Part shown: positions 4,129-63,088 of the stretch, piece after piece
Layout of the letters: the number at the start of each line of letters is the position of its first letter
How positions within the stretch are numbered: the first letter of the stretch is position 1
Source of the DNA: an uncultured Alphaproteobacteria bacterium
GTDB lineage: Bacteria; Pseudomonadota; Alphaproteobacteria; RF32; CAG-239
Length of the DNA stretch: 64,000 bases
Assembly (NCBI GenBank): GCA_934255405.1
Contig: CAKQNT010000007.1
Location: 286-64,285, forward strand
Direction: 5' to 3'
The notes under the pieces: model-generated
Seen by the model: only the letters and a program-made list of their open reading frames with translations
Databases searched by the model: none
What the model was told of the DNA's origin: nothing
Translations under genes and position numbers: made by a program

Positions 4129-5201
4129 CAGAGCTCTCCGCACACATATTCATTAAAAAATTCGTTCAAAAGCATGGTAGGGCTTTCTTCGCCGCGGATT
4201 ACTCTTGCCACGTATGAGCGCAGTTTGTTTTTGGGGATATAGATTCTGAAGTCATGCGGAGCGGCTTTGTCTGCGCCGATAACGCCTTCCAGCTTAAAAT
4301 CCTCATCAATATAAGGAGATAATATAATCTCAACATTGCAAAAACGAATAATTCCTCGCGGCGGCAGTCGCAATTCCGGACGAGTGATGATGTTTAGTTG
4401 TCCGTCAACCCCTGGTATTGAATCCATCTGATTATAGTTGGCAAAACGCACTTTGTTATACTCGCCGCCGCTTTCAATCGTGCGACAAGACAAATATAGT
4501 TCGCGGGCAATCACATTGCTGCTGTTGGAAGCCTGCAGGGCAAAAGATATTTTGACATATTGCTCCGGCGGATTGTCTATGCTGTTAGGGTACAGCATAT
4601 CTTCATCAATATTTTCCAGCGCCTCAATCTTGTGGTCGCCCATTATCAGCTCTACATTCGGCTGCGGAGCTTTTCCAAACATACCGGCAATTACTGCGTA
4701 TGGCGCCGGCACATTGTTGGAACCTGAACGAATATAAATGCTGTTGGAACCGGTTGTCATCAGCGGTGCAATATCGCACTTGGGGATATAAGTTGCGACA
4801 AAACCGTCGCCATTTGCGTCAACGCTTACAATATGATTGCGCACTTTATTGTGACTGGGAATAGTGCAGCCTGAAATTGCGTTTTCCAACCAGCTCAAAA
4901 AGCGGTGCACGTTTTTAACTTTGACTTTGGCTTTTGCCACATCTCCGACTTCCAAATCACGAGAGCACTCAACTCCCCACAGCACCACGCCTCCCTCAGA
5001 ATTTCCAAATCCGGAAATCGCCTTAGCCAGATTTTTGCGGTCGTCACGGTGCAGAGTAGTAAAGTTTTTGCCGTCTGATACTGCTTGCTTAAAGTCCAAA
5101 AACAGCTCCTCGGTTTGGCGGTTGATAATAAATTCATCAATCGCATCTTCACCGAAATATATCAGCTTCTGAAAAATATCTTCTGCGCGCGACATGGTCA
5201 A
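4128..5201 (-). CDS. AlbA_2 (Schlafen-like divergent AAA / putative DNA-binding) domain protein
   Basis: N-terminal ~120 aa resemble the AlbA_2 domain (EELFLDFKQ..., [11 protein letters not shown]); C-terminal ~230 aa unassigned; 1-4 nt overlap with the rnhA start. Confidence 0.45.
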
Positions 5202-48489: not shown

Positions 48490-48565
<76 letters not shown>

Positions 48566-48695: not shown

Positions 48696-49757
48696 TTATT
48701 GATTGAAAGTTTTTTCTAAAGCCGAGCGTTTTTGATCATCAAGAACGTGAGCATATATCGCGGTAGTTTTAATATCCGCGTGGCCGGCTATTTTTTGAGC
48801 GACACGGATATCACCGGTTGATTTGACAATCCAAGTTATGGCGGTGTGCCGCAGGGTGTGAAAATTAGTGTAAGGAAGTTTGGGATCTTTGAGATTGCCA
48901 TTGGCATCATAAAATATGGAATGCCAAGCGTGCTTGATGTCAGATACGGGCTTTCCATGGTAGTTAAATACATATTCATTTATTCGCGGCAATGTTTGCA
49001 ACAGATCTTTTAATTTACCAATCATGGGAATGGTGTGGTTTTTGCCGCCAACGGTGGTTCGGTCTTTGACTTGAACAGTAATGGTATTGTTGACAAAGTC
49101 AATTTGCGACCATTTCAACTTAAGGACGGTCCCTCGGCGAAAGCCGGTGTGGAGAGCGGTGAATATAATTGGTTTTAGGTGTTCGGGGGCGCGGTCTATA
49201 ATTGTTTGCGCGGTTTCCCAATCCTTGAGGTATTTTATATTTTCAGCAGGAACAGGCAGCTTAAATTTAATGGGGTTAGCTAAATTTGTTTTGGCTTCCC
49301 AATAATCGTTGGCCAAGTTCCTGATCGCGGACAAAATGGATAATTCTCGGTTGATTGTGCCGTTTTTTACGGTTTTGCGCCGCAATGCGACATAATCGGA
49401 TAAAACTTTTTTATCAATCTCATGAAAATATGTTACGCCGAGATTTTTCTTCATATTGGCAATTCTTAATAATACGTTGCGAGGCTTTGCTTGAAATTGG
49501 GCTCTTTCTTCAAAATAGCGGCCAAAAGCCTCATCCAGCGTTATGCCGGGCAACTCGCCGTTTGCAGCGGCTCGGCTTTTCTTCTGAATTTCTTCAATGC
49601 GGTGGAGGCAGTATTTGGCTGCCTCTGCTTCTGATATTTTGCCAGTTGACGTTCTAAGCTGTACTCTTTCTCCGGTTTCAGCGATGAAAGAGATATACGC
49701 GTGGTAGATACCGTTTCTGGTGAATAAGCGGTACGGTATACTGTGTTTCTTTGCCAA
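48696..49757 (-). CDS. int: tyrosine-type site-specific integrase
   Basis: N-terminal arm-type SAM-like domain plus catalytic R..HxxR..Y residues (HTLRHTAITW, AIYAHV). Confidence 0.85.
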   Translation of the reverse strand: MAKKHSIPYRLFTRNGIYHAYISFIAETGERVQLRTSTGKISEAEAAKYCLHRIEEIQKKSRAAANGELPGITLDEAFGRYFEERAQFQAKPRNVLLRIANMKKNLGVTYFHEIDKKVLSDYVALRRKTVKNGTINRELSILSAIRNLANDYWEAKTNLANPIKFKLPVPAENIKYLKDWETAQTIIDRAPEHLKPIIFTALHTGFRRGTVLKLKWSQIDFVNNTITVQVKDRTTVGGKNHTIPMIGKLKDLLQTLPRINEYVFNYHGKPVSDIKHAWHSIFYDANGNLKDPKLPYTNFHTLRHTAITWIVKSTGDIRVAQKIAGHADIKTTAIYAHVLDDQKRSALEKTFNQ

Positions 49758-56437: not shown

Positions 56438-56815
56438 TCATGAGGAAGGGAGGTTGCCAGAATAATAAGTCGATGCATTTCCCTGCATGTTTCCAAAAGT
56501 ATTTGTATTTATAGAGTTAATGCCGGTTTTTCCCCATATAGGGATAGTGTCTACAGTTTGCCAATTCTTAGTCTGGATGCCATAAACAAAGCCATAGTCG
56601 GAATTTTTGTTGGCTGAAACAATTCTAAAGCCATAGCTTTTTAATTGTTCTTCGAAAAATAGTTTTAATTTTGTTGTTGCAACATTTTTATCCGGCGAAA
56701 CTACCTTTATGGTTTTATTGCCACCGGTATCTATTGTGCTATTTATTTTTAATTCATATTGGGGAGAGGCACATCCACAAACTAAAACCAATAAATAATA
56801 TGCAAACTTTTTCAT
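56438..56815 (-). CDS. prophage lipoprotein co-transcribed with the repressor (continues in-frame past a TGA to 56093)
   Basis: signal/lipobox-like LLVLVCGCASP; start overlaps the cI stop; the in-frame downstream ORF 56093-56308 shares its Y/N/G-rich composition. Confidence 0.45.
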   Translation of the reverse strand: MKKFAYYLLVLVCGCASPQYELKINSTIDTGGNKTIKVVSPDKNVATTKLKLFFEEQLKSYGFRIVSANKNSDYGFVYGIQTKNWQTVDTIPIWGKTGINSINTNTFGNMQGNASTYYSGNLPSS

Positions 56816-57510
56816 TAGACCCTCCGACCATTGAGAATATAGACGATTTTGCCAACTATTTGGATTTCGCCGATTTCGGCGGTGATAGTGGAATAGCTGG
56901 GGTTGTCCGATTTGATGTCAATGCCGCTGAGGCCGGCCTGAAGGCGTTTGACGGCCAGCCCGGTGCTCATGCGAATGATATACAGACCATCTGAACTAAC
57001 AAAATTGTTGGAGATATCGACAAGGACCCAATCGCCATCATTGATAGTGGGAATCATGCTATCACCTTGGACGCGAAGCATTTTAACGCATTCCGGGGCA
57101 ATGTTGGTGATGGCTTTGAACTCGGCGATGGGCAGATGCCATTGGCCGCAGACTTTTTCGGGGAGATTGTCAATTCCGCCGCCGCAACAGGCGGTGGCAT
57201 CTATCATTTCAATAATGACTTCATCTTTTTTGAATAAAGAGCCTATTTTTTCGGCAACCATGGCAACGCCGGTCATGTGTGCTGGCAAAATCGTTTCATC
57301 AGTGAGTTCTTGCTCATCTACGTTCAGCAATATAGCGAGCCTATGTCTGAAGCCTTCATCAAGTCTTTTAGGCGATTTCTCTTTAACAAACTTTTGTAAA
57401 TAGCTTGGATTCTTGCCCAGCTTGATAGAAATGCTATTATAGCTCAAACCTCTCTCAGCCACAAGTTCCCCAACTCGCCGCTTAATTTCTTCAACCTTAC
57501 TCATAATCAT
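56815..57510 (-). CDS. cI/LexA-like phage repressor (HTH plus S24 peptidase domain)
   Basis: N-terminal HTH (RGLSYNSISIKLGKNPSYLQKF), C-terminal S24 Ser/Lys dyad (GDSMIPTI ... VKRL). Confidence 0.8.
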   Translation of the reverse strand: MIMSKVEEIKRRVGELVAERGLSYNSISIKLGKNPSYLQKFVKEKSPKRLDEGFRHRLAILLNVDEQELTDETILPAHMTGVAMVAEKIGSLFKKDEVIIEMIDATACCGGGIDNLPEKVCGQWHLPIAEFKAITNIAPECVKMLRVQGDSMIPTINDGDWVLVDISNNFVSSDGLYIIRMSTGLAVKRLQAGLSGIDIKSDNPSYSTITAEIGEIQIVGKIVYILNGRRV

Positions 57511-57569
57511 TCTCCTTAATTATAGTATAGCATATATGCCAAGAAAGTAAAGTTGTTGATTGTAGCGTT

Positions 57570-57612
57570 TTTGCTATTGACTTTTAGCAAAAATACTATA
57601 TATTTGCTATTG
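57570..57612 (+). promoter_or_regulatory. PR-like promoter/operator for the cro-like gene
   Basis: TTTTTGCTA-N8-TAGCAAAAA inverted repeat overlapping a TTGACT-N16-TATATT promoter; GGAGG RBS at 57612. Confidence 0.55.
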
Positions 57613-57621
57613 GAGGCAAAA

Positions 57622-57837
57622 ATGGTAAGCAATGAAGAATTTAAAAATATAGTTACAGCTTTCTTGAATAGAACCGGCCTATCACAGACTGCTTTTGGCA
57701 TTCGAGCCAAAAATGACCCATCTTTTTACTCAAGAATTATGTCAGGCCAAGAAGTCAAAGAAAGTGGCAAGCAACAAGTTTTGGACTTTATCAATAATTA
57801 CGAGAAAGGGAAAAACGATGATCAAGCTGATAATTAA
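57622..57837 (+). CDS. Cro/CII-like small HTH regulator
   Basis: 71-aa ORF divergent from cI with HTH-like GLSQTAFGIRAKNDPSFYSRI. Confidence 0.5.
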   Translation: MVSNEEFKNIVTAFLNRTGLSQTAFGIRAKNDPSFYSRIMSGQEVKESGKQQVLDFINNYEKGKNDDQADN

Positions 57838-57891
57838 GTTTTTGGAAAGACGCGGTTATGCGGTGTTGAAGCTCAGCCACAAAACAGTGGG

Positions 57892-58284
57892 TTGGGATAT
57901 TCGCGGCAACAAATACAGTGTGCACAAGAGATAGACGAGATGGCGGCTCCAGAGCATAGATTGCAGGTTTGGGTTATTCAATACCTCAGGCTCAACGGGG
58001 TGTTTTGCTTTGCTATTCCCAATGGCGGCAGGCGAGATTTGCGCACCGGAGCGATGCTCAAAAAAGAGGGAGTGCTGGCCGGAGTTGCTGATTTAGCTTT
58101 GTTGTTGCCCGGCGGCGAAACAGTTTTTGTTGAGCTTAAGAACGGCGGCAAGGGAGTACAGAGCTATAGCCAAAAAGTGTTTCAGAGCAGAGTTGAGGGG
58201 TTGGGCTTTACTTATTTGGTATGGCGCAACGTTCAGGACTGCATAGATTTTGTTAAGGGTTACAAAAAGGTTTTGACCAAATGA
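57892..58284 (+). CDS. VRR-NUC domain nuclease
   Basis: G..CF.IPNGG ... GV.DL.LL.PGGETVFVELK.G.G..S..Q pattern of the VRR-NUC (PD-D/ExK) family. Confidence 0.6.
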   Translation: MGYSRQQIQCAQEIDEMAAPEHRLQVWVIQYLRLNGVFCFAIPNGGRRDLRTGAMLKKEGVLAGVADLALLLPGGETVFVELKNGGKGVQSYSQKVFQSRVEGLGFTYLVWRNVQDCIDFVKGYKKVLTK

Positions 58285-58610
58285 AAGAATGGACTGACAC
58301 CGGGATTGTGGAGTGGCACAAAAAATTTTTCCCCAAAGCCACAATGCAAACCCAGTTATTGAAGATTGAAAGCGAGATGCGCGAAGTTCACATGGCCAGC
58401 GGCTATGACAATTTTTGGGAAGAGATTGCGGACGTGTATATCGCGGCGACGGCGGCTGAAATGCGTTTTGGGTCAGAGATGGCCAAGATAGTAAGGCGGC
58501 AGATACAGATTGTTGCCGGCGAAAAGCTATGGCCGAACGTAAACGCCAAAATGGCAATTAATGTTAATCGTAAATTTAAGGGGGATCATCATGTTGAGAA
58601 AGTTGCTTGA
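58281..58610 (+). CDS. MazG-like nucleotide pyrophosphohydrolase (putative)
   Basis: LLKIESEMREV ... WEEIADVYIAATA resembles MazG EE.GE...EE.GD motifs. Confidence 0.35.
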   Translation: MKEWTDTGIVEWHKKFFPKATMQTQLLKIESEMREVHMASGYDNFWEEIADVYIAATAAEMRFGSEMAKIVRRQIQIVAGEKLWPNVNAKMAINVNRKFKGDHHVEKVA

Positions 58611-58777
58611 TAAAATCAAGGGATCACCGATACCTGGTCGGCGGTTTGTCACAATTCCGGCTGAAGAATATAGGCTGTTGATGGTGGCGGCATGGAACAG
58701 AGGGCAAAGAGCGCAGGCGCAAAAACAATTAAAAGCCCTGAACGCTTGGAAAATGCAAAACGGATTGTGAGGGAGCG

Positions 58778-59401
58778 ATGGTTAGCAAATTTATGTTTTT
58801 TGAAAACTTTAAGGATACGGCGGACAAATTGCCCGATGATTTGCGGCTGAAGTTTTACGATGCCATAACCGACTACGCTTTTAAGGGGATAGAACCTGAT
58901 GATGCGATCATAGGAGCCTTGGTAAACGCAATTAAGCCAAGCCTGGACAAAGAAGAAAAAAGAGGAGGAAACCATAATCCAAGCGGAAACAATCAGCACA
59001 AAGTTGGTCAAACGGGGTCAAACGAGGTCAAACGAGGTCAAACCGAGGTCAAGGTTGAGGTCAAAAATAATCAAGGTGGCCAAAGTGGTCAATCCTTTCT
59101 TGAAACAGAAACAGAAACAGAAACAGAAACAGAAGATATTGTTAATTTAGCGGCGAGCCGCCAATATGCCTTTGAGGGGCAAGTTGTGAAATTGAGCCAA
59201 AAGGACTTTGACAACTGGCAAAGAGCATATCCTGAGTTGAACCTGCGAGCCGAGCTGATGATGCGCGACCAGTGGTTGGCACGGCAGCCGGAAGATGTCC
59301 GTAAGCGTTGGTTTATTTCGACCCAGCAATATTTTCTCAAACAAAACGAGTTTCGAAAAAGGCAAAACCATGAGGAAGTCAGGGAGGATTGGTACGTCTG
59401 A
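58778..59401 (+). CDS. phage replication-associated hypothetical protein containing iteron-like and hexanucleotide tandem repeats
   Basis: ORF; internal GGTCA(AACGA) repeats at ~10-11-bp spacing (59006-59091) and (GAAACA)5 (59102-59131). Confidence 0.4.
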   Translation: MVSKFMFFENFKDTADKLPDDLRLKFYDAITDYAFKGIEPDDAIIGALVNAIKPSLDKEEKRGGNHNPSGNNQHKVGQTGSNEVKRGQTEVKVEVKNNQGGQSGQSFLETETETETETEDIVNLAASRQYAFEGQVVKLSQKDFDNWQRAYPELNLRAELMMRDQWLARQPEDVRKRWFISTQQYFLKQNEFRKRQNHEEVREDWYV

Positions 59402-59790
59402 TGGCAAATACGGGGATTGTTTTACACCATTTGGCGGAATTGTACGCCAAGCCCAAAACCAACCAGCTGCAAGAGGCGGCGATTTGTGAGTACGAAGAAA
59501 AGCTAACCGGCAATTTTGACAGCTATGATCGGGCGTTTAGCGGAATTGCCACGGCTGAACTGGTTAAGGCGATTGATGATTATTGGCGGTACAAGTCGGA
59601 CAAGCAACGTCCCACGGTAGCCCAGATTATGGCCATGGTGAACTCTACCGAGCACAAAGCCGGCGGCGAAATGGACGAAGAATTTCGGGCACGGGTTGAA
59701 AAATGTGCGGCTGAACTGGACGATAAATGGGGATCTTTCGATTCCGGAATAGGAGCGCGGTTTAAGGCAAAATTTGGCTTGGAGGATTAG
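59389..59790 (+). CDS. phage hypothetical protein
   Basis: ORF. Confidence 0.3.
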   Translation: MVRLMANTGIVLHHLAELYAKPKTNQLQEAAICEYEEKLTGNFDSYDRAFSGIATAELVKAIDDYWRYKSDKQRPTVAQIMAMVNSTEHKAGGEMDEEFRARVEKCAAELDDKWGSFDSGIGARFKAKFGLED

Positions 59791-59792
59791 CG

Positions 59793-60275
59793 ATGGAATA
59801 TGTTACACCGGACGAGTGTTATCGCAAGGGGTTAGTTAGAGGCGATGATGGTCTGTACTACAAACTTAACACCCTCGAAAGGTATGGACGGGACGGCTGG
59901 TTGAACTTTGGCGATCCAGAATACAGCGCGGTTGACAGAGTTTCGGCAGGCAGCCGGTTATGGCGCGATTTTTATCACGGAAAGGTTGCGAGCACCGGGG
60001 TCAATGATTTGGCTAAGGTCAGAGTTGACGGTTGCGGCAGCGGCGATCTGACCGCCAGAGTGCTGGATGCCAGAGATCGTTTTAACAAAGCCATTGCCTC
60101 TATCCCCAAGGAATTTGCCCCGGCGGTTATTCGGGTGTGTTGCGATGATTTGGAGTTTGCCGTCAAGGGCAGCGACAGACAGAAAATGTACGCCAAGCAT
60201 CGGCAGGCAATGTTGCTGTGTTGCGGACTGGACAGATTGATTGAACATTACAGGTGGTATAAATGGAAAGCATAG
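59793..60275 (+). CDS. phage hypothetical protein
   Basis: ORF. Confidence 0.3.
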   Translation: MEYVTPDECYRKGLVRGDDGLYYKLNTLERYGRDGWLNFGDPEYSAVDRVSAGSRLWRDFYHGKVASTGVNDLAKVRVDGCGSGDLTARVLDARDRFNKAIASIPKEFAPAVIRVCCDDLEFAVKGSDRQKMYAKHRQAMLLCCGLDRLIEHYRWYKWKA

Positions 60276-60628
60276 AGAAAGAACTGGACAGATTGGTGCA
60301 AATGTTGTGTATCAACCATATTTGCCACATTTGCGGCACCAGGTCGGCGACTGCCGTTCATCACATAATTGGCAGGGCCAACCCGGTGTTGAGATATGAT
60401 GTAACCAACTTGTTGCCGGTATGCAATGAATGCCATCGGGCTATACATGACAAGGGAGTTGATGTATCCGGCTATGTTCACCCCTGGCGGTGGGAGTATT
60501 TGCAGAGAATTAAAAACAAGTCGTACAAAGACATACTGACCTTTGAAATGCAAATGAGCGAAAAAGAATATTTTAAGCAGTGCCGGCAGGTGCTAAAAGG
60601 ATTGTTGGGTGAAAACATTAGAAATTAA
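60263..60628 (+). CDS. HNH endonuclease
   Basis: CxxC...HH...N...CxxCH zinc-finger/HNH pattern (ICHICG..AVHHIIGR..N.LPVCNECHRAIH); sits upstream of the terminase genes. Confidence 0.6.
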   Translation: MESIEKELDRLVQMLCINHICHICGTRSATAVHHIIGRANPVLRYDVTNLLPVCNECHRAIHDKGVDVSGYVHPWRWEYLQRIKNKSYKDILTFEMQMSEKEYFKQCRQVLKGLLGENIRN

Positions 60629-60969
60629 ACAAGGGAACAAAATCACTTATAAAATTGTTCCCGACAACTACAAACCAAGCGACGATCGGGCTGAGCCGGA
60701 TATGACCACATCAGGGCGAAGAACCATTTGCATGGGAGTGGATAAAAAAAATTGGGATAAGATATTTAAAAAATAAAACTTTGTATTATGTATTGCATCG
60801 GCTAGACAAAACAAAAGGTGAAAAAAATGATTGAAATTTATTATATTGGATTTTTAGCACTAGCGGTCTATGCGCAAGTTAAGCGCAATAACTTTAGAGG
60901 CAATATATGCAACTTTGCGCTGGAAATACCAATTATGGGAAGAATTTTTGGTATTTGGTAAAATCGCTA

Positions 60970-60998: not shown

Positions 60999-61166
60999 TT
61001 TTATATAGTGGAATTTTAGGCTTTGTTGCCAGGTTTCACTTTTCAGGTCAAACCTTAAACCGTCATAATCCTCCTTTTATGGCGGTTTTTTGTTTGCCTG
61101 ATTTGTGTGTTTGAAAGCACAAATATCCAGAATGGATGTTTTCCTTTCAGTGAGGGTATATCGGTG

Positions 61167-61200
61167 TGCCCGGGTTCTTCTCCTTTCCCGGGCATTTTTT
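61167..61200 (+). terminator. GC-rich hairpin plus T6 immediately upstream of the terminase small-subunit start
   Basis: TGCCCGGG-N12-CCCGGGCA then TTTTTT. Confidence 0.55.
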
Positions 61201-61213
61201 AAAGGGTGAAACA

Positions 61214-61549
61214 ATGGGTGTGGGCAATAATGGCAATCTAATTCCCTTGAGTGAAAGAAGCAAGGAAGATGCTTTTGAGATACGCTCCAGGGGTGGTAAA
61301 GCATGCGCAACCGCTCAAAGACGGCGCAAACGCTTGAGAGAAACGCTTGAAGAGCTATTGGCTAAAGGTAACACTCAAGAAGATATTTGCCAAATGTTGA
61401 TTAGTGGAGAGTTTCCGGCAAAGACATTTGAGGTTATCAGGGATACGGTGGGTGAGAAACCGGCCACTGATATAACCGGCACATTGGATATTACCCAAGC
61501 ATTGGTGAGGTTTGTAGATGACGGAAGTGACGGTGGAGATACCCAGTAA
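61214..61549 (+). CDS. putative terminase small subunit
   Basis: position immediately upstream of the large terminase; basic RRRKRLRE region; the ORF-track start at 61166 lies inside the hairpin, so the start is taken at MGVGNNG. Confidence 0.3.
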   Translation: MGVGNNGNLIPLSERSKEDAFEIRSRGGKACATAQRRRKRLRETLEELLAKGNTQEDICQMLISGEFPAKTFEVIRDTVGEKPATDITGTLDITQALVRFVDDGSDGGDTQ

Positions 61550-62837
61550 GTTTAAGCCTCTGCTGTGTGAAAGTTATCGCAACAAGCTGTATTATGGCGG
61601 ACGAGCCGGCGGAAAGTCGTTTGCTTTTGCCGACAGTCTGTTATTGCTGGGGCGCACAAAACAGTTGTTCATCGCCTGCGTGCGCGAGGTTCAAAACTCG
61701 ATTAAGGATTCTGTTTACAAGCTGCTAAAAGATCGGGCAGAAAATTATAAATTTGACGATTACAGGTTTTATGAAGACCGGATTGAAAATATTATAACCG
61801 GCACGAGATTTGTCTTTAAGGGATTAAAAGACCAAAACAAGCAAAATATTAAATCTCTTGAAGGTGTTGATATATGTTGGATTGAAGAGGGACAAAGCAT
61901 CAGCAAGGCCAGCTGGGAAGTGCTTAACCCAACTATTCGTAAAAAAGGCTCGGAAATTTGGGTTTCTATGAACCGCGAAGAAGAAAACGACCCGATCTGG
62001 GTGGCGGTTGCGGCAAACTCTGACGAGCGCACCTTTGTGTGCAAAGTTAATTATTATGATAATCCATATTGCCCGGAAGAAATGCGCTATTTGGCTGAAA
62101 AAAGCAAAAGCGAAAATTACGAGGATTATTTGCATATCTGGGAGGGCGAACCGGTCCAGCAAGGAAACACCAAGCTAATTGGCGGCAAGGCGGTGGTAAA
62201 AGCCTTTGAGCCTAAGATGGATAGTTCAACCTCGCCGCTGATTATCGGTTTGGATATCGCCCGGTTTGGCGACGACACCACGGTGTTTTGTTTCCGCAAA
62301 GGGCGGTGGTGCTATCGGTTTGACAGCTACACGCACAAGAGCGTGGTTGAGGTGGCGAATATCGCTACTAATTTGATTAAAGAGTTTCAGCCGGCGCGGT
62401 TGTTTTTGGATGACGGCGGTGTCGGCGGTGGGGTCTATGATATTTTGAAAGACCGCGGATTTGGTGAAGTCGTGCGCGGTGTGAATTTTGGCGGTAATGC
62501 CATTGATGACGAGCGTTACACCAACCGCCGGGCTGAAATGTGGGATTGTGTTCGGGAATGGCTGACCCAGACGGTGCAACTGCCAAACGACGACCGTTTG
62601 CTTGACGATCTATGTGCTGTCAACAAAAAGTATGACCGCCGCGGCAGATTGCAGTTGGAGAGCAAGGAAGAAGTCAAGAAGCGTTTGGGACGCTCTCCGG
62701 ACAAGGCCGACGCTTTGGCTCTGACCTTCGCCGAGCCGGTGTATGACGTTGGCAAACCGCGAATGTACGGAAATGGCAATGTTTCTTTTGAAGAATTATT
62801 TGCTTTGGACGCAGCGAGAAAGGATAACACATGGTAA
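61518..62837 (+). CDS. terL: phage terminase large subunit (PBSX/Terminase_6 type)
   Basis: N-terminal ATPase Walker A-like YYGGRAGGKSFA, CWIEEGQ Walker B; C-terminal RNase-H-like nuclease (LDIARFGDDTTV). Confidence 0.8.
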   Translation: MTEVTVEIPSKFKPLLCESYRNKLYYGGRAGGKSFAFADSLLLLGRTKQLFIACVREVQNSIKDSVYKLLKDRAENYKFDDYRFYEDRIENIITGTRFVFKGLKDQNKQNIKSLEGVDICWIEEGQSISKASWEVLNPTIRKKGSEIWVSMNREEENDPIWVAVAANSDERTFVCKVNYYDNPYCPEEMRYLAEKSKSENYEDYLHIWEGEPVQQGNTKLIGGKAVVKAFEPKMDSSTSPLIIGLDIARFGDDTTVFCFRKGRWCYRFDSYTHKSVVEVANIATNLIKEFQPARLFLDDGGVGGGVYDILKDRGFGEVVRGVNFGGNAIDDERYTNRRAEMWDCVREWLTQTVQLPNDDRLLDDLCAVNKKYDRRGRLQLESKEEVKKRLGRSPDKADALALTFAEPVYDVGKPRMYGNGNVSFEELFALDAARKDNTW

Positions 62838-63088
62838 AAGCAATTATGGATCGAGTTTTTATTAGGCTGGACAAGAAAGAAGAAAAAACCAAAGGCGGCA
62901 TTATTTTGGCCGACACGGTCGAAGACAGCCGCACCACCGGCGTGGTTGAGAGCGTGGGCGAAGATGTTAGTTGCGTTAAGCCCGGCGACAGAGTTCTTTT
63001 TCATGTGTTTGACGAGCTGCCCAGCTATGATCCGGAAGTGGTGGTGGTAAGACAGAGCAGCTTGCTGGGAGTGTTTGAAGATGAATAA
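62831..63088 (+). CDS. GroES-like co-chaperonin (Cpn10 family)
   Basis: I.DRVFIRLDKKEEKTKGGIILADT......GVVESVGEDV..VKPGDRVLF pattern of Cpn10. Confidence 0.55.
   Translation: MVKAIMDRVFIRLDKKEEKTKGGIILADTVEDSRTTGVVESVGEDVSCVKPGDRVLFHVFDELPSYDPEVVVVRQSSLLGVFEDE

Follow-up and report, generated by a model that had tools for sequence, protein, structure and literature searches.

The DNA analysed here, a stretch of 64,000 nucleotides from an uncultured alphaproteobacterium (in the following referred to as the window), contains a phage gene in the middle of which a short motif recurs about once per helical turn. This raises the question whether the repeats constitute a signal at the level of the DNA and, if so, whether that signal is an origin of replication, as was proposed in the initial annotation of this open reading frame (ORF). 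The proposal is supported by the comparative evidence, i.e. by the constraint that acts on the repeats at the DNA level, their conserved position, the kinship of the C-terminal domain of the encoded protein and the gene neighbourhood. In our reading, which is based on sequence comparison, positions 59006-59134 quite probably represent the vegetative (theta-type) replication origin of a prophage that is integrated at a tRNA-Thr gene, and this origin would be located inside the gene that encodes its own initiator.

The presumed origin consists of the following elements (positions are those of the window):

59006 to 59092, plus strand: iteron-like array of seven exact GGTCAA copies and two degenerate copies, with a period of 9-12 bp and in a single orientation
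59093 to 59101, plus strand: junction TCCTTTCTT (peptide SFL) that separates the GAAAC repeats from the last iteron and recurs in all three iteron classes
59102 to 59134, plus strand: (GAAACA)5.5, an A-rich, purine-biased tract (Tandem Repeats Finder: period 6, 5.5 copies, 100% matches)

The seven GGTCAA positions and spacings that had been reported initially proved exact when the sequence was read: the copies start at 59006, 59016, 59026, 59036, 59047, 59059 and 59087, with gaps of 10, 10, 10, 11, 12 and 28 bp. The 28-bp gap is occupied by the degenerate copies AATCAA (59069) and GGCCAA (59078), and the resulting nine units are spaced by 10, 10, 10, 11, 12, 10, 9 and 9 bp, with A/T-GGTCAA-A as the consensus of the array. 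Tandem Repeats Finder likewise recovered the tandem repeats that had been claimed for 59006-59131, namely at 59102-59134 and at 59006-59052 (period 10, 4.6 copies, 94% matches). The complete window contains 26 copies of GGTCAA on the plus strand, seven of which lie within these 87 bp, and the expectation after shuffling is about 28 for both strands of the whole window, or about 0.02 per 87 bp. The best other helically phased chain of an exact 6-mer between 52 and 64 kb has three copies, and no further phased GGTCAA cluster, i.e. no second, oriR-like array, was found in the window. The array has a GC content of about 45-50%, and a search for DnaA boxes yielded none in or near it.

The encoded protein belongs to Pfam family DUF6291, for which we found 379 homologs (clusters). 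We took 80 homologous loci, representing about 60 distinct genes, from viral, genome and metagenome collections; they originate from gut and rumen samples and include metagenome-assembled genomes of Alphaproteobacteria, Selenomonadaceae and Clostridia, and the window itself matches a contig from the Hadza human gut. A phased array of 4-13 short cores is present at the equivalent position in the approximately 60 distinct homologous genes. In most of these genes the best in-gene phased 6-mer chain has 4-10 copies and lies at about nt 210-345; as a rule, no chain in the rest of the locus is as long, the maximum there being mostly 2-3 copies and, for a few loci, 4-6. Absence of the repeats from related phages, an outcome that the initial annotation regarded as speaking against an origin, was thus not observed: they are found in the same place in nearly all relatives. 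Three classes of cores were distinguished:

(A/T)GGTCAA(A): 25 distinct genes, 4-7 copies per gene, spacing mode 10 bp
AATCAAA: 21 distinct genes, 4-13 copies per gene, spacing mode 10 bp
AAACAACC: 7 distinct genes, 4-6 copies per gene, spacing mode 11 bp

Apart from these, a divergent group of genes carries TTCGAACA-like repeats. Throughout the homologous arrays the cores are conserved and the spacers of 3-4 nt are variable, which fits binding sites and would not be expected after recent duplication.

The second repeat, the GAAACA tract, had been described as five perfect units; these are indeed present, but the peptide they encode is longer than stated, i.e. ETETETETETE (five times ET, plus E) and not ETETETETE. 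Homologs carry GAAAC(A/G/T) with a period of 6-7 in shifting frames (ETETE, ETGNGNRKQE, ETRNKKQE), and the GAAAC motif is common to all three core classes. We regard the tract as a putative second conserved DNA motif, and as a candidate for an unwinding or loader-entry element. In most homologous genes the array is followed by the junction CCTTTCTT and then by GAAAC repeats; the frame of this junction (SFL) never varies across the three iteron classes, and it could be either a short linear peptide motif or a part of the DNA signal. In one relative, L071 (metagenome contig OLVT01014097.1), there is an allele of only 137 aa in which the frame of the GAAAC repeats is a different one (KQKLKQKLKQ); it could be a pseudogene with a frameshift, or the result of repeat slippage or of an assembly error. 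The idea that the bottom strand of (GAAACA)n provides repeated CTG primase sites was dropped, as homologs with GAAACAAG units lack CTG.

The unwinding element is the weakest link of the origin reading. The check for an AT-rich stretch that the initial annotation had suggested gave a divided answer: the GAAACA tract is a local minimum in GC content (0.35) with a strong skew of A over T, yet its stability falls below the average by just about one standard deviation (40-bp dG of -48.1 versus a mean of -52.5 kcal/mol). It ranks 2052nd among 11961 segments of 40 bp, and even within the gene another site is less stable; a strong AT-rich unwinding element was not found by the nearest-neighbour stability analysis. 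Some homologs have a truly AT-rich tract instead (e.g. L014, 10% GC). A search for inverted repeats gave weak pairs only, and no lambda-like palindrome that adjoins the tract.

In view of this weak link, an alternative has to be weighed in which the array is still part of an origin and in which its cores are read as single-stranded DNA after melting, so that unwinding would take place in the array itself and GAAAC would have some other role. The cores are very short (7 nt), have one orientation and lie on the A-rich strand, and no strongly AT-rich unwinding element adjoins the array, all of which would fit such a role, comparable to that of the motifs of RctB or of the DnaA-trios. The sites of RctB may be spaced similarly to the cores found here. 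In the case of chromosome 2 of Vibrio cholerae, RctB binds repeated (G/A)ATCA motifs in the unwinding element (PMC10797057), and the class-2 core AATCAAA includes the ATCA motif cited for RctB. Nevertheless, an array with the GC content given above is hard to melt, a phasing of one core per turn is the classic sign of proteins that line up along one face of duplex DNA, and no single-stranded-DNA-binding domain was detected in the protein. We consider this alternative unlikely, and retain the reading of the cores as duplex binding sites within the origin.

The identity of the gene that hosts the repeats bears directly on the question whether they belong to an origin at all. The gene and its parts are as follows:

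58778 to 59401, plus strand: candidate replication-initiator gene (207 aa), encoding a DUF6291 N-domain, a predicted disordered linker and a C-domain
58778 to 58951, plus strand: part that encodes the helical DUF6291 N-domain (aa 1-58), delimited by Pfam and the AlphaFold2 model
59153 to 59386, plus strand: part that encodes the C-terminal domain (aa 126-203), shared with the lambdoid initiators of phrog_17247

The match to DUF6291 (PF19808) covers aa 5-65 with an E-value of 1.1e-9 and a score of 38.8 bits, above the cutoff of 27.2, and the homologs carry precomputed PF19808 assignments. In the AlphaFold2 model of the 207-aa protein, for which 36 homologs served as input, aa 6-58 are helical (pLDDT about 85), aa 59-125 have a pLDDT below 50 (means of 27-35 for 10-residue blocks within aa 61-120) and aa 126-203 reach about 90. 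The stretch that is predicted to be disordered corresponds to DNA positions 58952-59152, and thereby to the arm (see below), the GGTCAA array and the GAAACA tract.

The C-domain provides the link with replication. The protein matches phrog_17247 over aa 111-201 (E 1.8e-12), and by tblastn its C-domain is 39% identical over about 65 aa to the 'replication initiation protein' of E. coli phage Louie (CDS0046) and to gp54 of E. coli phage HK639, both of which occupy the position of lambda O, directly upstream of genes for DnaC-like or P-like loaders. The N-terminal parts of phrog_17247 proteins match six 'replication initiation protein' PHROGs. The genes of Louie and HK639 moreover contain three copies of CTGATTCCCTT at a spacing of 21 bp, mid-gene and just before the region that encodes the shared C-domain:

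L001 3388-3440 and L002 3388-3438: CTGATTCCCTT repeats of the Louie and HK639 initiator genes

These repeats probably represent the own, unannotated origins of Louie and HK639. The combination of N-domain and array is joined to at least five unrelated C-domains, and the position of the array is kept in the genes with swapped C-domains. Several of the C-domains of DUF6291 proteins match initiator, DnaD-like (helicase loader) and primosomal PHROGs, and isolated phages of Vibrio, Edwardsiella and Acinetobacter combine these C-domains with DUF4373 or with other N-domains of initiators, in genes that stand upstream of DnaB or IstB genes. The possibility that the ORF product belongs to a non-replication family, raised at the outset, is ruled against by the membership of its C-domain in phrog_17247 and by the initiator matches of the N-terminal parts in that family.

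The N-domain, on the other hand, could not be connected to a known initiator, and the homology to O/RepA-like proteins that had been anticipated holds for one half of the protein: the C-domain falls within a lambdoid initiator family (phrog_17247), whereas the N-domain has no O or RepA homolog. A Pfam scan (E <= 0.01) that could have returned the lambda O family (Phage_rep_O) returned only DUF6291, NCBIfam gave no match for the 207-aa protein, and the PHROG matches of the N-terminal part are all of unknown function. At the structural level, a Foldseek search of the model against the PDB gave nothing with an E-value below 2, and a search against BFVD gave only other DUF6291 proteins and weak matches named DnaD or DUF1376, next to a single 'Terminase' (E 0.079). 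A profile search of the PDB with DUF6291 yielded no meaningful match. DUF6291 was also considered as a divergent form of the replisome-organiser (DUF4373) N-domain and rejected (hhalign probability 0.1%); only the C-domains are shared. By blastn, the region 57500-60700 had no counterpart in a collection of 50,697 genomes of isolated phages; tblastn with three DUF6291 proteins as queries matched the C-domains in this collection and never the N-domain. A search of a literature library for DUF6291 retrieved no paper. Because the N-domain has no detectable similarity to a known DNA-binding or initiator fold, we can only infer that it binds DNA.

The third line of evidence is the gene neighbourhood, in which the following features surround the presumed initiator gene:

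56815 to 57510, minus strand: CI-like repressor (Peptidase_S24, E 4.7e-20; phrog_4 'transcriptional repressor')
57553 to 57837, plus strand: Cro-like regulator, with weak PHROG matches to transcriptional repressors and a position opposite the cI-like gene
59401 to 59790, plus strand: candidate (G39P-like) helicase loader of 129 aa, whose gene is translationally coupled to that of the presumed initiator
61166 to 61549: small-terminase candidate that precedes the large terminase gene

The CI-like gene provides the context of a lysogeny switch upstream of the replication module, and the Cro-like gene is the first of a rightward operon that runs through the candidate origin. In 30 of the 51 loci examined, the DUF6291 gene is followed by a homolog of the 129-aa ORF; at this place L007 and L030 have a DnaC/IstB-like loader, and the group of L023 and L024 has a DnaB helicase. 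A helicase-loader role of the 129-aa family is probable on three pointers, each of them weak. Six relatives match phrog_2289 'helicase loader' (E 5e-6 to 7e-3), the window's own protein having no direct PHROG or Pfam match, and in the PDB the family profile comes closest to G39P of phage SPP1 (1NO1; E 0.037), in an alignment that covers the motif W..l..y.l..v..a..y...k.PtvaqI. In a Foldseek search of the 129-aa model the top three PDB matches were lambda P in complex with DnaB, at E-values (0.9-2.4) that are not significant. No gene for a DnaB-type helicase follows the loader candidate in the window. At least three GAAAC copies are present in 26 of the 30 loci with a G39P-like gene versus 9 of the 21 loci without, in a comparison that is confounded by phylogeny; one conceivable role of the GAAAC motif is that of a strand-specific site at which the loader or the helicase lands.

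The loader candidate itself differs in length from most of its relatives, which have 190-270 aa and an additional conserved C-terminal domain with the motif GxCRHNLYxY ... EFPSD (e.g. in L003, L031 and L036). The copy in the window lacks this domain and may be a minimal or truncated form. The next gene (59793-60275) encodes a DUF6456 protein, and in L034 a DUF6456 gene (4703-5185) directly follows the DUF6291 gene; it may, judged from this arrangement, be a further component of the replication module.

On its left side the prophage is probably delimited by an attachment site at the tRNA-Thr(cgt) gene (48490-48565), which adjoins a tyrosine integrase gene (48696-49757, minus strand; Phage_integrase, 4.5e-24), and it continues beyond the right end of the window. 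An HNH endonuclease gene (60263-60628) is located just before the genes for the small and large terminase, an arrangement typical of HNH-assisted cos packaging. Directly after the large terminase gene (61518-62837) there is an ORF for a GroES-like co-chaperonin (62831-63088; Cpn10, 6e-14), a position that is unusual for a phage-encoded chaperonin. In the host part of the window, 33747-33799 matches the Rfam 'ffh sRNA' (40.3 bits versus a gathering score of 35).

This neighbourhood also allows a judgement of the alternative that the repeats are binding sites with a role outside replication, i.e. an operator for autoregulation by the DUF6291 protein, a pac site or a partition centromere. Phased short repeats are also known from pac sites and parC-type centromeres, the DUF6291 gene lies just 1.8 kb upstream of the terminase genes, and the one BFVD fold match named 'Terminase' would point in the same direction. 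In the homologous loci, however, the neighbours are helicase-loader or helicase genes and not terminase genes, the C-domains belong to replication initiators, the window has a separate small-terminase candidate before the large terminase, and there is no ParA or ParB gene nearby; autoregulation, for its part, is compatible with origin function. We judge such a role outside replication to be very unlikely. Given the homology of its C-domain and its place upstream of loader or helicase genes, the ORF at 58778-59401 would instead be classified as a replication initiator, and the array, being located inside this ORF, constrained at the DNA level (see below) and conserved in relatives, would qualify as an origin within an initiator gene.

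The constraint at the DNA level follows from the way in which the repeats relate to the reading frame. As a consequence of the period of 10-11 bp, successive GGTCAA cores land in all three reading frames (0, 1, 2, 0, 2, 2 and 0), and the peptide across the cores reads VGQ-GSN-EVK-RGQ-EVK-EVK-SGQ. Synonymous recoding of the 207-aa protein (20,000 rounds, codon usage as in nearby phage genes) served as a control: GGTCAA is observed seven times versus a mean of 0.84 and a maximum of 6 after recoding, and GAAACA six times versus a mean of 1.06 (P = 5e-5). The cores rest on the minority codons GGT, GTC, TCA and ACA, each of which makes up 8-17% of its codon family. Among the homologs of the GGTCAA class, 82 of the 96 in-frame Gly-Gln pairs in the linker (85%) are written GGTCAA, versus 7 of 57 (12%) in other long ORFs of the same loci. 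On this evidence from frames and codons, selection on both repeats acts at the DNA level.

It is hardly credible, for these reasons, that the repeats are a mere by-product of slippage in a low-complexity linker rich in Gln, Glu and Thr and lack a function at the DNA level: although they do encode a predicted disordered linker, the (GAAACA)5 of the window is in frame and perfect, as after recent slippage, and the copy number differs among homologs, in-frame peptide repeats cannot yield a period of 10-11 bp and the peptide is not periodic, the cores are conserved and the 3-4 nt spacers vary, rare codons keep the core (as in the 85% versus 12% of Gly-Gln pairs), the GAAAC repeats survive in the shifted frames of homologs, and the array stays in place despite swaps of the C-domain.

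Which part of the initiator would recognize the cores is suggested by a comparison of the protein classes with the core classes, in which one short segment stands out:

58961 to 58996, plus strand: part that encodes the Gly-rich 'arm' motif R62-GGNHNPSGNNQ-73, a candidate specificity determinant

G63, G64 and G70 of the arm are invariant in the DUF6291 family. Arms of the type GGNHNPxGxNQ pair with GGTCAA(A) cores (29 of 29 classifiable genes), those of the type GG[AKFR]Rxx.G (GGxRxxxGxP) with AATCAA(A) cores (22 of 22) and those of the type GGAPxGNxNA with AAACAACC cores (AACAAC; 7 of 7), i.e. arm class and core class agree in all 58 classifiable genes. No such correspondence exists for the helical N-domain, which is 96% identical between L055 (GGTCAA) and L034 (AATCAA), 82% between L078 (GGTCAA) and L017 (AACAAC), and 87% between the window and L065 (AATCAA class). 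In the pair L055/L034 the DNA is about 90% identical over the part that ends at nt 180, and the similarity resumes at the junction; between these flanks, arm and array have been exchanged together. The correspondence suggests that the arm reads the cores; as arm and array lie within about 30 nt of each other, it could also reflect physical linkage. A joint reading would be that DUF6291 proteins are initiators that are widespread among phages of gut and rumen, that their specificity resides in a Gly-rich arm that is predicted to be disordered (GG-x5-G) and not in a folded DNA-binding domain, and that the arm and the array of 7-bp cores, one per turn, make up a cassette (about 110 bp) which nearly identical genes exchange as a whole. 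We put this forward tentatively, as a possibility that we think is rather unlikely to hold in full.

We infer the binding, the unwinding, the recruitment of the loader and the origin activity itself along the following lines. Expression of the rightward early operon, in which the initiator gene lies after the cro-like gene, would yield the DUF6291 protein, and the N-terminal part of this protein (helical domain plus arm, RGGNHNPxGxNQ) would bind the 7-bp cores (A/T)GGTCAA(A). As there is one core per helical turn, we propose that several protomers assemble along the same face of the DNA, which would give a bent or filamentous nucleoprotein complex. This complex would stress the adjacent A-rich GAAACA tract, which then opens or acts as an entry site; the C-terminal domain would recruit the product of the next gene, the G39P-like loader, and the loader would deliver a DnaB-type helicase, for which the host is invoked because the phage does not encode one. 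It is a speculation by analogy that the GAAACA tract acts as a strand-specific recognition element, as described for other initiators (PMC10797057).

The above gives a testable function to DUF6291, with its 379 detected clusters, and to its usual downstream partner. Both families are found in uncultured phages of gut and rumen, for which origin candidates are hereby supplied; these candidates are useful for the building of vectors, the prediction of replication modules and the annotation of phages in metagenomes. The cassette swaps (L055 versus L034, the window versus L065) are nearly ideal material for studying the evolution of initiator-origin specificity and also bear on the rise of new incompatibility or immunity groups. 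At a more general level, the case illustrates how a stretch that codes for a protein linker can at the same time hold a dense non-coding signal, spread across all three frames.

The proposed arrangement can be compared with several known systems. In phage lambda, the origin (ori-lambda) is found in the middle of gene O, and its iterons are four (six in Stx phages) imperfect inverted repeats of 19 bp (PMC7466680). The candidate shares with lambda O the mid-gene location of the origin, between the regions that encode the N-terminal DNA-binding and the C-terminal loader-recruiting parts, as well as the order of repeated initiator sites followed by an A/T-biased tract, with the loader gene next and all of it in a rightward early operon after cro. 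It differs from lambda in that there are 7-9 direct cores of 7 bp, one per helical turn, in that the DUF6291 N-domain has no sequence or fold similarity to that of O, and in that the tract is only about 65% AT and built of the conserved GAAAC motif.

In phage SPP1, oriL lies inside gene 38, which is followed by the genes for the loader G39P and the helicase G40P (PMC6316719). Both systems have direct repeats and a (candidate) unwinding tract within the gene of the origin-binding protein, followed by a small loader (candidate) of nearly equal length (129 versus 126 aa for G39P), with a similarity to G39P that is marginal (E 0.037). Unlike in SPP1, no DnaB-type helicase gene follows in the window, though some relatives have one, and no second origin-like array was found here. 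The genes for gp54 of HK639 and CDS0046 of Louie resemble the one in the window in their homologous C-domain, the internal repeats upstream of it and the loader gene that comes next; their N-domains, however, belong to PHROG 'replication initiation protein' families and not to DUF6291, and their repeats are 11 bp long and two helical turns apart.

With the iteron plasmids (RepE, TrfA, pi) and with RctB the candidate shares an array of direct repeats, to which the initiator would bind, beside a putative unwinding element. Plasmid iterons are about two helical turns long and, unlike the array in the window, they are located outside the rep gene. Initiators of the RepE/TrfA/pi/RctB type use winged-helix domains, whereas no such fold was detected in the DUF6291 protein. 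Some initiators of the iteron type also read short one-strand motifs of the unwinding element (PMC10797057). In comparison with all these systems, the location of an origin inside the gene of its initiator is classical, and the new details are the DUF6291 family, the 7-bp cores at one per turn, the GAAAC motif and the cassette of arm and array.
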